Source: an uncultured bacterium
GTDB lineage: Bacteria; Omnitrophota; Gorgyraeia; Zapsychrales; Aceulaceae
DNA: 64,000 bases
NCBI GenBank assembly: GCA_937930175.1
Contig: CALGLP010000022.1
Location: 161,360-225,359, forward strand
Reading direction: 5' to 3'
Shown here: piece by piece, positions 55,369 through 63,063 of the stretch
Numbering within the stretch: position 1 is the stretch's first letter
Layout: each line of letters begins with the position of its first letter
Notes under the pieces: model-generated
Told to the model about the DNA's origin: nothing
Database searches by the model: none
Seen by the model: only the letters and a program-made list of their open reading frames with translations
Program-made: the position numbers and the translations under genes

Positions 55369-55689
55369 ATGTCTGTAATCAAACTAGATTATGAAAATTT
55401 TCACAAGGAGGTTTTGGATTCTTCTATTCCTGTTCTTGTTGATTTCTTCGCGGACTGGTGCGGGCCTTGTCGTATGCTTGCGCCTGTGCTGGAGGAATTG
55501 GCGGTTGCTTATGAAGGCCGATGCAACATAGCGAAGGTGAATGTTGATGAAAATCCTGACCTCGCGGCGCAGTATCAGGTCTCATCGATTCCGGCTTTAT
55601 TCTTTTTTAAAAAAGGGAAAGTGGTGGATCAAGTTTTAGGAGCCCTTCCCAAAAGATCCCTGGAAGATAGGATCAATCGATTACTGTAA
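55369..55689 (+). CDS. trxA: Thioredoxin
   Basis: WCGPC active site, FKKGK, 106 aa. Confidence 0.9.
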   Translation: MSVIKLDYENFHKEVLDSSIPVLVDFFADWCGPCRMLAPVLEELAVAYEGRCNIAKVNVDENPDLAAQYQVSSIPALFFFKKGKVVDQVLGALPKRSLEDRINRLL

Positions 55690-55716
55690 TTTTTGATATT
55701 GACAGAAAGGGTAAAT

Positions 55717-56199
55717 ATGAAAAGGATAGCAATTTTTATTTTGGGGTTTATCGCGGGCGTGGTTTTTTTAGGGTCTGCTGTGATTATTGTTGCGCCAAAG
55801 ATGATGATCGTTTCAAGCGCGAGTCGATATGATTTTGACGAAACAGTTCTTCGTATCGAGCAAAGTATTCAACAGGCTGGGTGGAGTCATAAGGGAACTA
55901 ATTTTATGAATGAGGAGATCGGCATGCGATCGGGGAAAGGCTTGGGTGTTCGCGTAGCGGGTATCAAGCTTTGCAAAGCCTCTTACGCTAGAGATATTTT
56001 ACAAGATGAAAAGGCGCGATTTGCCTCTTGCTTGATGCCTTGCACAATATCGGTCTGGGAATCAGATCTGGGCAAGGTTTATGTGTCAAAAATGAATACA
56101 GGGTTGATGGGAAAGCTGTTTGGTGGAAAGATGGCAGAGATTATGGCCGACAAAGTTGCTCCACAAGAGCATGAAATGCTTAAGGATATTATTAACTAA
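55717..56199 (+). CDS. DUF302-family protein with N-terminal membrane anchor
   Basis: TM helix followed by a DUF302-like core (RYDFDETVLRIEQSIQQAGW...ASCLMPC). Confidence 0.55.
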   Translation: MKRIAIFILGFIAGVVFLGSAVIIVAPKMMIVSSASRYDFDETVLRIEQSIQQAGWSHKGTNFMNEEIGMRSGKGLGVRVAGIKLCKASYARDILQDEKARFASCLMPCTISVWESDLGKVYVSKMNTGLMGKLFGGKMAEIMADKVAPQEHEMLKDIIN

Positions 56200-56222
56200 C
56201 ACTTGCGTGAGGATTATTGTCT

Positions 56223-57926
56223 ATGAGTTCAAAGAAGAAAATTGTGATTATTGGGGGAGTTGCCGCGGGTCCTAAAACAGGATCACGTATTAGCAGGATT
56301 TGTCCAGACTCTGAGATCACGTTGATTGAGAAAGGGAAGTTTCTTTCCTATGCGGGATGTGGCCTTCCGTATTATATTTCTGGAGCGGTTCAGGATCAGA
56401 AAGAATTAATGTGTACATCCATAGGCGTTGTCAGGGATCCTGTTTTTTTTCATGATGTTAAAAATGTTAAAGTTTTGAACCAGACCCAGGCGACGTTGGT
56501 TGATCGGCAAGCAAAGAAAGTTTGTCTTCAGCATGTCTTATCGCGGGAGACTGCCGAGATCCCCTACGATACCCTTGTTTTTGCAACCGGATCGCATCCT
56601 ATCGTGCCGCCTATCGACGGTATTAAACTTAAGAATGTTTTTATAGTGCAGACCATTGAAGACGCTGAAGGTATTCGCGCTATCTTGAGCGAAGGTAAGG
56701 CGCGGGATGTTGTTATCATCGGAGGAGGGCTGATTGGCGTTGAAATCACAGAGGCCTTAACCGAAAGGGGCGCGCGCGTCACAATCATTGAGCGGCTCCC
56801 GCAAATTCTTCCGATGCTTGACAAAGAATTAGCGTATCTTGTTGCCAAGCACATGGAATCCAAGGGTGTTAAGATTAAGACGCAGACTGCCGTTAAGCGT
56901 ATTGAAGGCGTTCACACAGTCGAGGCGGTGATTACGGATCATGAGCGAGTGTCCTGCGATTTTGTCATTGTCGCGGTTGGCGTAAAACCAAATACTAGTT
57001 TAGCGAAAGATGCTGGGCTTGTGCTTGGAACAACAGGCGGGATTGTGGTCAATGACCATATGCAGACAAGTGATCCGAATATCTTTGCGGTTGGCGATTG
57101 TGTTGAATCTTTTCATCGACTAACCGGTAAACCTTGTTTTATACCCCTTGGTTCAACGGCAAACAAGCAAGGACGCGTTGCGGCTAATAATATTTGTGGG
57201 ATTGATGATGTCTTTCCAGGTGTTTTGGGGTCGACGGTATGCAAGGTGTTTGATTTTAGCGTGGGAAGAACAGGGCTTGGAGAAGATCAAGCTCGTCAGG
57301 AAGGATTTGATATTGTGACGCTTTTTAATCCGGCTCCTGATAAGGCGCACTTTTATCCAGGCGCAAAGCTTATCTATGTTAAATTGATCGCAGATCGCCA
57401 AAGTCGGCGTCTTTTGGGACTGCAAGTGGTTGGCCCTGGTGACGTAGATAAACGTATCGATGTTGCCGCAACCGCCATGACAGCTCACATGACTGTTGAC
57501 CAGATCGCGAATCTTGATCTTTGTTACGCGCCGCCATATTCACCGGCGGTTGATAATATTTTAACATCGGCCAATATCGCGCGTAATCAGATCGACGGGC
57601 TGTATCAGTCGATATCTCCTGAAAAAGTAAAGGAAAAGATAGACAAGGGCGAAAAGATCGTTTTGCTTGATGTTCGAAGTCCGCAGGAATATGATGAGGC
57701 AAGGATCGAAGGGTCAGTCCTTATTCCTTTAGGGCAGTTGCGACGCAGAATAAACGAGTTGTCATTAGATCAAGAAATTATTACTTTTTGTAAAATTTCA
57801 TTACGGGGTTATGAGGCCGCTTTAATTTTGCGATCAGCAGGATTTTGCAATGTTAAAGTTATGGATGGCGGAATGCTGATGTGGCCATTTCAGGTCATTT
57901 CAGTCAAGCATTCAAATAAGAGTTGA
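56223..57926 (+). CDS. CoA-disulfide reductase / NADH oxidase family flavoprotein with C-terminal rhodanese domain (Npsr-like)
   Basis: FAD motif IVIIGGVAAG. Active-site SYAGCGLPY. Second dinucleotide fold VVIIGGGLIG. C-terminal rhodanese with the catalytic Cys in ITFCKISLRG. Confidence 0.8.
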   Translation: MSSKKKIVIIGGVAAGPKTGSRISRICPDSEITLIEKGKFLSYAGCGLPYYISGAVQDQKELMCTSIGVVRDPVFFHDVKNVKVLNQTQATLVDRQAKKVCLQHVLSRETAEIPYDTLVFATGSHPIVPPIDGIKLKNVFIVQTIEDAEGIRAILSEGKARDVVIIGGGLIGVEITEALTERGARVTIIERLPQILPMLDKELAYLVAKHMESKGVKIKTQTAVKRIEGVHTVEAVITDHERVSCDFVIVAVGVKPNTSLAKDAGLVLGTTGGIVVNDHMQTSDPNIFAVGDCVESFHRLTGKPCFIPLGSTANKQGRVAANNICGIDDVFPGVLGSTVCKVFDFSVGRTGLGEDQARQEGFDIVTLFNPAPDKAHFYPGAKLIYVKLIADRQSRRLLGLQVVGPGDVDKRIDVAATAMTAHMTVDQIANLDLCYAPPYSPAVDNILTSANIARNQIDGLYQSISPEKVKEKIDKGEKIVLLDVRSPQEYDEARIEGSVLIPLGQLRRRINELSLDQEIITFCKISLRGYEAALILRSAGFCNVKVMDGGMLMWPFQVISVKHSNKS

Positions 57927-61570: not shown

Positions 61571-61571
61571 G

Positions 61572-62843
61572 ATGAAACGTATTTTCCTTATCTTTCTGCT
61601 TGTTATGTCGCTATCCTCTGCGGCGCAGGCTGGTTTTTCTGGCCTACATGGGTTTATTGAAAACGACGTCGGGATCAAGTTGAGCGATGACACCACCAAG
61701 CGCGACAACTACAATATGTTTGAACAGCGCTTGCAGCTGAAGTCCAATTATTACGCGCAAGGCGAAAGCTATTGGGCGCGCAAGGGAATGGTGGTGAATT
61801 TTCGCGGTGATTTTACCGTGGATGAATACTACAGCGGAAAGACGGATTTTGATCTTCGTGAATTCAATACATCCTTGAGCCCTTTTCGCTCTATGGATCT
61901 TAAAGTGGGCCGCCAAGTTTTAACATGGGGGACAGGGGACTATCTTTTTATTAATGATATGTTCCCTAAAGATTACGAGTCGTTTTTTATTGGTCGCGAC
62001 GATGAGTATCTTAAGAAGCCCTCGGATGCTGTAAAGGCTTCGTTTTATCCAAAATTTGCGAATATCGATCTTATTGCGATTCCGTCTTTTACGCCCAACA
62101 CCATCGCCACCGGGGATCGGCTATCATTTTTTGATAGCTTCCAAGGCGGCATTGCTGGCACCAATTCCGACCGTCATATTATTGAACCACCATTTCAGAT
62201 GTCCAATAATGAATATGCCCTGCGCGCATATCGCAATTTTGGCAGCAATGAAGCCGCTTTTTATTATTTCCATGGCTTTGATAAGAATCCTCGTAGTTAC
62301 AAGAATGAAGCCGAGCGCCAACTTTATTACCAACCCCTTGATGTTTACGGCGCAAGCCTTCAGGGGCCCTTTGCCAAGGGGATTGGCAATCTTGAGCTTG
62401 GCTATGGCCGCTCGCGTGACGATGCCAATGGTACCAATCGGATGGTGGAGAATTCGTGGTTAAAAATGATGGGAGGGTACAGCAAAGACCTTGGCAATGA
62501 CTTGAGAGTGGGTTTCCAATATCTAGTCGAAGAGCGACTGAACCAGGGCGCCTATGAGGACCATCTTTTGCCCAATGATTATCGCTGGGATGAGTTTCGT
62601 CATGTCCTCACCAACCGCCTCACCAAATTATTTAAGAATCAAACGGTCAACGTGACCTTGTTTACTTTTTATTCTCCGTCGGATAAGGATGGATACGTGC
62701 GGCCGTCGGTGAGCTATGATATGACCGATCAGTGGAAGGTGACCCTTGGTGCGAGCTTGCCCTGGGGCGAAGATGACCACACCGAATTTGGCCAGATGAA
62801 GCGCAACAAAAACGTGTACTTACGGGTACGGTATAGTTTTTAA
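61572..62843 (+). CDS. Outer-membrane beta-barrel protein (DUF1302-like porin partner of MMPL systems)
   Basis: Signal peptide. Alternating amphipathic strands. C-terminal ...VRYSF aromatic terminus. Confidence 0.5.
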   Translation: MKRIFLIFLLVMSLSSAAQAGFSGLHGFIENDVGIKLSDDTTKRDNYNMFEQRLQLKSNYYAQGESYWARKGMVVNFRGDFTVDEYYSGKTDFDLREFNTSLSPFRSMDLKVGRQVLTWGTGDYLFINDMFPKDYESFFIGRDDEYLKKPSDAVKASFYPKFANIDLIAIPSFTPNTIATGDRLSFFDSFQGGIAGTNSDRHIIEPPFQMSNNEYALRAYRNFGSNEAAFYYFHGFDKNPRSYKNEAERQLYYQPLDVYGASLQGPFAKGIGNLELGYGRSRDDANGTNRMVENSWLKMMGGYSKDLGNDLRVGFQYLVEERLNQGAYEDHLLPNDYRWDEFRHVLTNRLTKLFKNQTVNVTLFTFYSPSDKDGYVRPSVSYDMTDQWKVTLGASLPWGEDDHTEFGQMKRNKNVYLRVRYSF

Positions 62844-62883
62844 CTTGCTCCTTTTGATAAGGAGATCAACGAAAGGATCGACG

Positions 62884-63063
62884 ATGGAAAGGATCTTACG
62901 CGGTATCGCAGGTGTCTTTATTTTGATCAGCTTAGCCTTGGCGGTTTGGGTTGACAGCCGATGGTTGTGGTTTACAGCTTTTGTTGGTGCTAATCTTTTG
63001 CAGTCAGCATTTACCAATTGGTGCCCCATGATAACTATTTTAAAGAAATGTGGTGTTAAATAA
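62884..63063 (+). CDS. DUF2892 (YgaP-like) small membrane protein
   Basis: GANLLQSAFTNWCPM motif typical of DUF2892. Confidence 0.6.
   Translation: MERILRGIAGVFILISLALAVWVDSRWLWFTAFVGANLLQSAFTNWCPMITILKKCGVK

Follow-up and report, generated by a model that had tools for sequence, protein, structure and literature searches.

Does a set of thiol-repair genes share its control with the envelope exporter encoded directly downstream, and to what would their regulator respond? The locus that raises this question lies in a 64,000-nt stretch from an uncultured Omnitrophota bacterium (Aceulaceae), assembly GCA_937930175.1, CALGLP010000022.1:161,360-225,359, forward strand, hereafter called the window. 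Eight open reading frames (ORFs), all on the plus strand, fill positions 55369-63063, and an initial annotation had read them as a thiol/persulfide-stress-like set in which a BigR/SqrR-like ArsR might tie redox sensing to an MMPL exporter trio. Our analysis favours, with a confidence slightly above even, a single unit at 55288-63139 that would be repressed by an ArsR of a separate clade (type A) and would couple thiol repair to a trans-envelope exporter, sulfane sulfur being the likeliest inducer. The genes and the candidate control elements are:

55288-55316, plus strand: sigma-70-like promoter, TTGACA (55288-55293), 17-nt spacer, TAATAT (55311-55316), score 10/12
55298-55323, no strand (palindrome): operator, presumed type-A ArsR site, perfect 11-4-11 palindrome AATCGTTATAT-CGTA-ATATAACGATT, overlapping the -10 element
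55369-55689, plus strand: trxA, thioredoxin (Trx), 106 aa, WCGPC (PF00085, E = 3e-33; TIGR01068, 125.5 bits against a cut-off of 96.8)
55717-56199 (ORF open from 55693), plus strand: DUF302 protein with N-terminal membrane anchor (PF03625, 28 bits against a cut-off of 23)
56217-57926, plus strand: CoA-disulfide reductase (CoADR)-type flavoprotein with C-terminal rhodanese domain, 569 aa (Pyr_redox_2, Pyr_redox_dim and Rhodanese)
57962-57980, plus strand: conserved TTTTGTGATAAAATAACAT, TGn-extended -10-like, 5' of arsR, unique in the window
57999-58259, plus strand: predicted type-A ArsR/SmtB repressor, 86 aa, with Cys30 and Cys69 (NF033788, 79 bits against a cut-off of 55)
58275-60794, plus strand: MMPL/HAE3-like RND inner-membrane transporter, 839 aa (PF03176, E = 8e-38)
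60791-61570, plus strand: periplasmic LolA-like (TP_0789-like) protein with cleavable signal peptide (PF17131, E = 5e-55)
61572-62843, plus strand: outer-membrane beta-barrel, 423 aa, C-terminus ...RYSF, distant relative of DUF1302
62884-63063 (ORF open from 62845), plus strand: DUF2892/YgaP-like protein with two transmembrane (TM) segments and a 'WCP' Cys (PF11127, E = 7e-15)
63098-63139, plus strand: intrinsic terminator, 14-bp stem followed by a T-tract

The initial annotation had placed and named the eight genes correctly: searches against Pfam and NCBIfam confirmed the identities of all eight proteins, and the coordinates of the ORF list, the strand and the domains agreed. Intergenic gaps across the eight genes ranged from -4 to 72 nt. 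For the LolA-like gene the likeliest start is ATG 60791, which opens a predicted signal peptide (MKRLGVAVF...) and overlaps the MMPL stop by 4 nt (ATGA); for the barrel gene it is ATG 61572, one base past the LolA-like stop (signal peptide MKRIFLIF...). Given these revised starts, the junctions from arsR to DUF2892 were -4 to +40 nt. For minus-strand ORFs overlapping the operon genes (e.g. 57904-58224) we found no evidence that any is real.

For comparison, we gathered 160 related loci, 80 from genomes and 80 from metagenomes, referred to below by L numbers. In the best related locus, from a Candidatus Omnitrophota metagenome-assembled genome, the MMPL gene was 90% identical. Gene order in the closest relative, L003, was identical to that in the window and was permuted in L004 and L006, which argues that the genes co-occur above chance.

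Promoter, operator and terminator

The promoter at 55288-55316 had the joint top score in 54900-63400 and was the sole top scorer placed 5' of a gene start. The operator that overlaps it has arms that are 100% complementary; the 64 kb contain a single copy, where chance would give 0.01. It recurred once each, at the operon head, in the type-A loci L001-L005, L013 and L047, whatever the first gene was: trx in the window and L003, a C_GCAxxG-like gene in L001 and L002, and arsR in L004, L005, L013 and L047. It was also found upstream of type-A arsR in L083 (Aureabacteria-like, two sites, no MMPL genes) and L085 (Ancaeobacter), and the same TTGACA context stood beside it in L003, L004, L005, L047, L083 and L085. 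Scored with a weight matrix built from these sites, three held-out type-A loci (L128, L168 and L169) also contained the operator, at 31-37 bits. When the matrix was applied to 4.2 Mb of other loci, only six matches exceeded 20 bits, each directly 5' of another arsR.

The terminator at 63098-63139 was the strongest terminator-like site in 54900-63400, and no terminator of comparable strength was found inside 55369-63063. With a single operator over the best promoter 5' of trxA and the best terminator after the DUF2892 gene, the segment from trxA to DUF2892 is most likely one autoregulated eight-gene operon. The order of genes in two relatives, arsR-trx-DUF302-CoADR-MMPL in L004 and arsR-CoADR-MMPL in L006, likewise places the redox genes inside the arsR-to-exporter unit. 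From neighbourhood, the initial annotation had tied a Cys-containing ArsR to the MMPL exporter; a single common promoter and operator, permuted gene orders and recurrence across phyla support that link.

The -10-like element at 57962-57980 has similar counterparts 5' of arsR in L001, L002 and L003 despite a differing preceding gene. It may, tentatively, act as an internal extended -10 promoter for basal expression of the repressor and exporter.

The six matches above 20 bits (L042:242, L043:9621, L080:7363, L133:5114, L134:1760 and L147:1202) were AT-rich 10-4-10 palindromes at TTGACA promoters, such as ATTATAATAT-TGTA-ATATTATAAT in L080. They precede arsR genes of type B, defined below, and genes with a shifted type-A-like Cys pair, which suggests that the exporter-linked ArsR clades have a common operator plan.

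The ArsR regulator

The regulator had the winged-helix ArsR/SmtB fold (PF01022, E = 3e-11), and its AlphaFold model (pLDDT 91) had the topology a1-a2-b1-a3-a4-b2-b3-a5. In this model Cys30 falls in a two-residue strand (30-31) just ahead of helix 3 in the chain, and Cys69 in the second wing strand (67-72). Cys30 was conserved in 121 of 121 and Cys69 in 120 of 121 sequences, comprising the query and the best 120 of 403 homologues (51-100% identity). In winged-helix proteins of the ArsR family the pre-helix-3 and wing strands share one sheet, which makes a direct bridge between Cys30 and Cys69 plausible in the model.

The nearest solved structure was PagR (2zkz, 9e-14), followed by BigR (3pqj, 2e-10), SqrR (1e-5) and YgaV (2e-4). 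The proposed membership in the BigR/SqrR/YgaV group did not survive the alignment: BigR Cys42 aligned with Glu, the window protein stopped before Cys108, and the score against the BigR family model NF040642 was 48.9 bits, with a cut-off of 155. The BigR sensing pair is hence missing, and a different pair, Cys30 and Cys69, is invariant or nearly so in its place. The column equivalent to Cys42 held Glu in 98 and Cys in 6 of the 121 type-A proteins. In a neighbour-joining tree of the 99 ArsR proteins that adjoin homologous exporters, the window protein fell in a pure clade of 11, here called type A, and Xylella BigR within a separate clade of 32; identity between type-A and BigR-type proteins was 26-29%. 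Two other assignments were rejected as well. The PagR equivalog model gave 60 bits with a cut-off of 170, and a classical As(III)-sensing ArsR of the R773 type was not supported as the protein has no CxC triad, a single Cys in the motif NHC30NVSKIV and two Cys overall. Judged by its sequences, type A is probably a previously undescribed group of short ArsR proteins that has a Cys pair of its own and goes with a clearly marked operator.

Elsewhere, type-A arsR genes occurred with genes for Trx, thioredoxin reductase (TrxR), CoADR-like proteins, DsbD, peroxiredoxin-glutaredoxin (Prx-Grx) and RND pumps, and in Margulisiibacteriota and Aureabacteria they headed Trx/TrxR operons.

Two loci combined type-A arsR with classical RND genes: in L167 (arsR at 6001) the order was arsR-trx-x-OEP-MFP-AcrB, a classical tripartite pump, and in L168 (arsR at 6001) it was arsR-C_GCAxxG-DUF6132-DUF2892-MFP-AcrB. 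DUF2892 and a small DUF6132 protein recurred in type-A regulons irrespective of an MMPL pump, and the presence of DUF2892 in an AcrB-type type-A operon suggests that it tracks the stress regulon and not just MMPL pumps. An ORF of 61 aa, weakly similar to a portion of the membrane-anchored DUF302 protein, was located between type-A arsR and the pump gene in L085 (8270-8455) and L128 (7820-8005); nothing equivalent is present in the window.

The exporter module

The initial annotation had described an MMPL trio. Its three members, the pump, the LolA-like protein and the barrel, were nearly always found together among the 160 loci, and the count was one too low: the module consists of four genes, an HAE3/MMPL RND pump, a LolA-like protein, an 18-strand barrel and DUF2892, the last adjoining the other three in 53 of the 66 loci that could be evaluated in the genome set and in many of the metagenome set. 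DUF2892, which had been assigned to the CoADR gene set, is by the same count a core part of the exporter module instead. Carriers spanned at least 8 phylum-level groups, with labels including Omnitrophota, Nitrospirota, Zixibacteria, Calditrichota, Ignavibacteria, Myxococcota, Alphaproteobacteria and Gammaproteobacteria.

The pump scored 130.7 bits for the MMPL domain and 206.5 bits against its best NCBIfam model, TIGR00921 (HAE3), which has a cut-off of 351.9; more than 6000 homologues were found at E <= 1e-50, annotated merely as RND or MMPL transporters. The LolA-like protein matched PF17131 at 186 bits and DUF1329 at 20.6 bits, under the cut-off of 23.1, and its solved relatives were 9tp6 (5e-31), 4z48 and 3bk5. 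The fold of the barrel protein was an 18-strand outer-membrane barrel, in a structure comparison that covered solved structures only. It matched DUF1302 at 17-18 bits, below the cut-off of 23.2; 42 of 68 homologues matched this family weakly, with a best E-value of 2e-5, and the barrel family profile gave no match to PDB sequences. Among the best 120 of its 2322 homologues, all those with a source name were called "hypothetical". The DUF2892 protein (55.3 bits for PF11127, cut-off 25.3) is a TM domain alone of 59-72 aa, with no rhodanese domain; its motif is FvG.Nl.QsafT.wCp, and the 'WCP' Cys was present in at least 90% of 58 sequences. Pfam detected no BNR/Ycf48-like domain in the eight operon genes, and no such recurrent cluster was found among the neighbours of the 160 loci, where clusters were checked against Pfam in part.

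The pump carries a C-terminal extension of ~70 aa (residues ~770-839, ~60582-60794) with CxCxxC, two extra predicted TM helices and Cx8C. Its five Cys were kept in ~45 Omnitrophota homologues. Homologues from proteobacteria and Zixibacteria lack the extension, which may serve the pump as a metal/Fe-S or redox-sensing appendage.

Thiol and persulfide enzymes

The flavoprotein contains PF07992, PF02852 and PF00581 in that order in one chain. Its solved relatives were 6pfz (2e-154), 3icr (2e-116), 3nta (8e-113) and 8a56 (1e-104); it aligned full-length to 6pfz and 3icr, and both catalytic Cys aligned with those of the two structures, in 'AGCGLPYY' of the flavoprotein part and 'FCKISLRG' of the rhodanese loop. 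The NCBIfam equivalog models for CoADR were below cut-off (442.9 against 578.8 bits and 387.3 against 458). By sequence, the nearest solved relatives of this protein are NADH-dependent persulfide/polysulfide and CoA-persulfide reductases, and with 6pfz, 3nta and 8a56 among them the thiol/persulfide reading of the gene set in the initial annotation was a reasonable one. The N-terminal hydrophobic segment of the DUF302 protein is visible directly in its sequence, and homologous membrane-anchored DUF302 genes lie upstream of the module in L128, L134, L158 and L165.

Module neighbourhoods in other lineages

Within 3 kb of the module, 99 of the 148 loci that could be evaluated had an ArsR-family gene, and a Cys motif was recognisable in about 94 of the encoded regulators. 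Fifty carried a Cx3-4C motif in helix 5 (type B), 26 had both BigR-type Cys, 11 belonged to type A, a shifted type-A-like pair was seen in 2, and 6 were of other kinds. Five more BigR-type proteins had been missed by the column test, with ORFs apparently ending in ...EFC(S), as seen directly for L141, which brings the total to ~31 loci, mostly proteobacteria-like. A BigR-type ArsR next to the exporter, as proposed for this locus, is thus found at these ~31 distant module loci and not in the window. The BigR-type genes were mostly divergent, 46-142 bp from the pump gene, and their products had the BigR model as best match (87-108 bits full-length) and clustered with Xylella BigR.

Enzymes were counted among neighbours within 4 kb of the module. 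Type I sulfide:quinone oxidoreductase (SQR) was encoded in 8 loci; in 7, its gene immediately preceded the module in the same orientation. The identity of the enzyme was checked against solved SQR structures (1.6e-106, 4e-145). Two Nitrospirota loci had the order DsrE-DsrE-DsrH-SQR. CoADR or CoADR-rhodanese was present in 9 loci, three of which (L133, L147 and L164) belong to a distant clade with type-B ArsR; DUF302 was present in 14 loci, thioredoxin in 16 and type II persulfide dioxygenase (PDO) in 3 (the L097 protein matched 4ysk at 2e-106). The cultured species Parvularcula marina (L170, GCA_003399445.1) and Hyphococcus luteus (L171, GCA_002943565.1) combine BigR-type arsR, DUF2892, pump, LolA-like protein, barrel, type I SQR, rhodanese and cytochrome bd. 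Neighbours of the Omnitrophota modules included genes for flavodiiron protein, rubrerythrin, superoxide reductase, glutaredoxin and TrxR.

In six loci without ArsR (L067, L069-L071, L075 and L077), from Zixibacteria, Calditrichota and Ignavibacteria, the pump gene was instead directly preceded by genes for an ECF sigma factor and an anti-sigma factor of the zf-HC2 (ZAS) type.

Proposed mechanism and alternatives

We infer DNA binding, redox switch, inducer, transport direction and substrate from these comparisons. The reduced type-A ArsR dimer would sit on the palindrome of its own operon and block the promoter at the -10 element. A thiol oxidant would bridge Cys30 and Cys69 through a disulfide or polysulfide and release the repressor from DNA; sulfane sulfur (persulfide or polysulfide) is the most likely inducer, with disulfide stress derived from O2 as main alternative. 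Upon derepression, the CoADR-rhodanese would reduce persulfides or disulfides with NAD(P)H, while thioredoxin would reduce oxidised protein thiols and probably reset the sensor. The HAE3/MMPL pump would take a hydrophobic thiol-reactive compound from the inner membrane, the LolA-like periplasmic carrier would hand it to the 18-strand outer-membrane barrel, and the small Cys-bearing DUF2892 membrane protein would serve as exporter accessory. Sulfane sulfur is preferred as signal because independent lineages put SQR, DsrE/H, PDO and true persulfide sensors at the module.

Several observations weigh against this mechanism. The weight matrix found no operator in the Margulisiibacteriota type-A loci L081 and L082, and the site was merely weak in L006 and likewise in L167. 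The possible internal promoter at 57962-57980 means that arsR and the exporter are perhaps also transcribed separately. No ArsR adjoins the module in 49 of 148 evaluable loci, and SQR, PDO and DsrE are absent from the window. Many Omnitrophota modules adjoin O2-defence genes (flavodiiron protein, rubrerythrin, superoxide reductase, PerR-like), which oxidative stress would explain equally well. The whole case is built on sequence and comparative evidence.

With genes for O2 defence beside the module in Omnitrophota, oxidative disulfide stress is a serious rival, to which we give a real but clearly smaller chance. The operon would then answer general disulfide stress from O2 and reactive oxygen species in a strict anaerobe: the Cys pair would sense oxidants, sulfur species would not be the physiological signal, the flavoprotein would act as CoA-disulfide reductase or NADH oxidase, Trx would repair proteins, and the exporter would clear oxidised lipids or remodel the outer membrane. 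Modules stand directly beside genes for flavodiiron protein, rubrerythrin, desulfoferrodoxin, Fur/PerR-like regulators, glutaredoxin or TrxR in L010, L016, L019-L021, L024, L026, L027, L038 and L046, and L169 has Fur, ferritin and a Prx-Grx fusion upstream of type-A arsR and MMPL. Type-A ArsR also heads Trx/TrxR operons in other phyla, and an O2-sensitive [FeFe]-hydrogenase system is encoded immediately upstream in the window. However, the flavoprotein has a rhodanese domain and is nearer to persulfide reductases than to plain CoADR or NADH oxidase, independent lineages carry SQR, DsrE/H, PDO and BigR-type sensors at the same module, and DUF302 and DUF2892 recur with sulfur genes. The locus might instead hold two uncoupled neighbours, a trxA-DUF302-CoADR-rhodanese housekeeping cassette and a separately regulated arsR-MMPL-LolA-barrel-DUF2892 exporter. 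The 72-nt gap before arsR with its conserved TGn-extended -10-like sequence fits such a split, as does the lack of the Trx-DUF302-CoADR cassette at most module loci. We consider it improbable, as the only type-A operator of the window precedes trxA and not arsR, no terminator follows the CoADR gene, and cassette genes stand between arsR and MMPL in L004 and L006; moreover, a second, distant clade independently has type-B ArsR-CoADR-rhodanese-MMPL (L133, L147 and L164) and ArsR-Trx-DUF302-OsmC-MMPL (L134, and L151 without DUF302).

Metal(loid) resistance, in which the ArsR Cys would sense As(III), Sb(III) or a thiophilic metal and the RND module would export the metal or a metal-thiol conjugate, is in keeping with a family that classically senses metals. 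Aligned with R773 ArsR, Cys30 presumably lies near the alpha-3 position of the As(III) site, ArsP_1-type permeases adjoin some module loci (L155 and L166, and downstream in others), and many type-B regulators end in CxxxCC. But there are two Cys per monomer and no CxC triad, the window operon has no ars genes (arsB/acr3, arsC), and Trx, TrxR and CoADR predominate in the regulon; known HAE3/MMPL pumps with LolA-like partners handle hydrophobic substrates (PMC6394551). This makes resistance to metals a distinctly improbable function. That the regulator is after all a member of the BigR/SqrR/YgaV two-Cys persulfide-sensor family has the weak overall similarity to 3pqj and NF040642 and the sulfur-type neighbourhood in its favour, and is scarcely tenable given that both defining Cys positions are missing, the score is far under the family cut-off, the protein sits in a separate pure clade and PagR is nearer.

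Within the favoured coupling of thiol repair to export, a bolder version is rather unlikely: the module could be a dedicated exporter of membrane-dissolved zero-valent sulfur (S8 and organic or inorganic polysulfanes from SQR and persulfide metabolism), with the DUF2892 'WCP' Cys as a membrane sulfane relay and at least three independently evolved Cys-pair ArsR types (A, B and BigR-type) switching it on.

Relation to known systems

Bacterial persulfide and polysulfide detoxification is known mainly through cytoplasmic enzymes (SQR, PDO, rhodanese and CoA-persulfide reductase) and three sensor families. We know of no established route by which hydrophobic sulfane sulfur or toxic by-products leave cells with two membranes. 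If the proposed coupling is correct, the reactive-sulfur stress response would gain an envelope arm, and DUF2892, PF17131 and the DUF1302-like barrel family would gain a function; if the module does export zero-valent sulfur, it would be the so far missing exit route of sulfane sulfur from diderm cells. The exporter family is large and unnamed, with thousands of homologues, and is repeatedly wired to thiol-based sensors and to SQR, DsrE and CoADR-rhodanese genes. Its function is directly testable in the cultured carriers Parvularcula marina, Hyphococcus luteus, Marinobacterium litorale (DSM 23545) and Rhodothalassium salexigens.

The window ArsR shares with BigR, SqrR, YgaV and HlyU the winged-helix ArsR/SmtB fold, a conserved Cys pair, autoregulation (predicted here) and the company of sulfur and thiol-redox genes. 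The Cys pair of those proteins is located in helix 2 and helix 5, whereas that of type A is in the strand before helix 3 and a wing strand; type A is also shorter (86 aa), has no C-terminal Cys, forms a separate clade and has another operator, AATCGTTATAT-N4-ATATAACGATT. PagR of Bacillus anthracis, the nearest solved structure (2zkz, 9e-14), is likewise short and without classical metal sites, but lacks the Cys30/Cys69 pair in the alignment and serves an unrelated regulon. As in E. coli YgaV-YgaP, an ArsR-type regulator is encoded with a YgaP-like two-TM domain (PF11127) protein; in the window, however, this domain is free-standing (~60 aa), the rhodanese is on the flavoprotein and the regulator falls outside the YgaV (BigR) type. 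The flavoprotein has the same architecture and, by sequence, both catalytic Cys of the CoADR-RHD/Npsr/CoA-persulfide reductases (B. anthracis 3icr, Shewanella 3nta, A. fulgidus 6pfz, and 8a56), but unlike those systems it is encoded in an operon with an envelope exporter.

In R. capsulatus the SqrR-regulated thioredoxin TrxC reduces the polysulfide link of the sensor (PMC10044876). Genes for an "RND transporter" adjoin many two-Cys SqrR/BigR-type genes, including R. capsulatus sqrR, and have been suggested to move sulfur compounds (Li et al., Mol Microbiol 2025; PMC12423496); that study defines neither the transporter type, nor LolA-like, barrel or DUF2892 partners, nor sensors outside the BigR type. 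The best 120 homologues of the alphaproteobacterial pump did not include the RND protein encoded beside R. capsulatus sqrR; that protein may or may not be of the same family. In the literature we found no paper linking MMPL or HAE3 pumps to persulfide biology, nothing on HAE3 with LolA beyond AmeABCD, nothing on sulfide and thioredoxin in Omnitrophota, and no locus tags for the surroundings of R. capsulatus sqrR.

The closest described exporters are AmeABCD of Castellaniella defragrans, a monoterpene-tolerance exporter made of an HAE3 pump, a LolA-superfamily protein and a DUF1302 outer-membrane protein (PMC6394551), and the DUF1302-DUF1329-BNR-RND (COG1033) clusters of Shewanella and Pseudomonas, which show co-fitness and have been suggested to export a cell-envelope component (10.1101/072470). 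Both have been proposed to carry hydrophobic compounds across the whole envelope and out of the cell. The module resembles them in combining an HAE3-like RND pump with a LolA-superfamily periplasmic protein and a barrel distantly similar to DUF1302. It differs in that its periplasmic protein is a short PF17131 protein (~260 aa) in place of DUF1329 (~450 aa), its barrel is smaller (~425 aa, sub-threshold for DUF1302), a BNR/Ycf48-like protein is missing, DUF2892 is present instead and the RND gene comes first. Its company is Cys-containing ArsR regulators and sulfur or thiol genes, whereas that of the AmeABCD kind is genes for terpene or aromatic catabolism. By these sequence criteria we read the exporter as an uncharacterised variant of AmeABCD-type systems that recurs among sulfur and thiol genes.

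HAE3 pumps are also present in spirochetes. TP0789/TP0790 of Treponema pallidum are not known to have an established function, a Cys-containing ArsR or a sulfur context. In newer Pfam labels PF17131 has been renamed TP_0789-like, and TP0790 has been described as an RND transporter (PMC8407342).

Other features of the window

A complete cluster for an [FeFe]-hydrogenase and its HydEFG maturases lies upstream of the operon at 43566-55016. Its members include NuoE-like, HydA (47260-49038), CMD/AhpD-like, TM1266-like regulator and Lyase_1 (aspartase-like) genes and those for HydF, HydG and HydE, together with a 1045-aa fusion of NuoF-like and GltD-like (Pyr_redox_2) modules at 44123-47260. This cluster points to an H2-metabolising anaerobe as host, and hyd maturase genes are likewise located upstream of the operon in L002 and L003. 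Just past the hydE stop, a perfect 13-bp hairpin without a T-tract (CCACCCCGCAGAA C TTCTGCGGGGTGG, 55045-55071) may mark the end of the hyd transcript. Rfam detected no RNA family in the operon; elsewhere in the window, a cobalamin riboswitch (RF00174, 57.4 bits, E = 1e-11) was found at 30130-30287 on the plus strand, upstream of a 709-aa ORF at 30320-32449.

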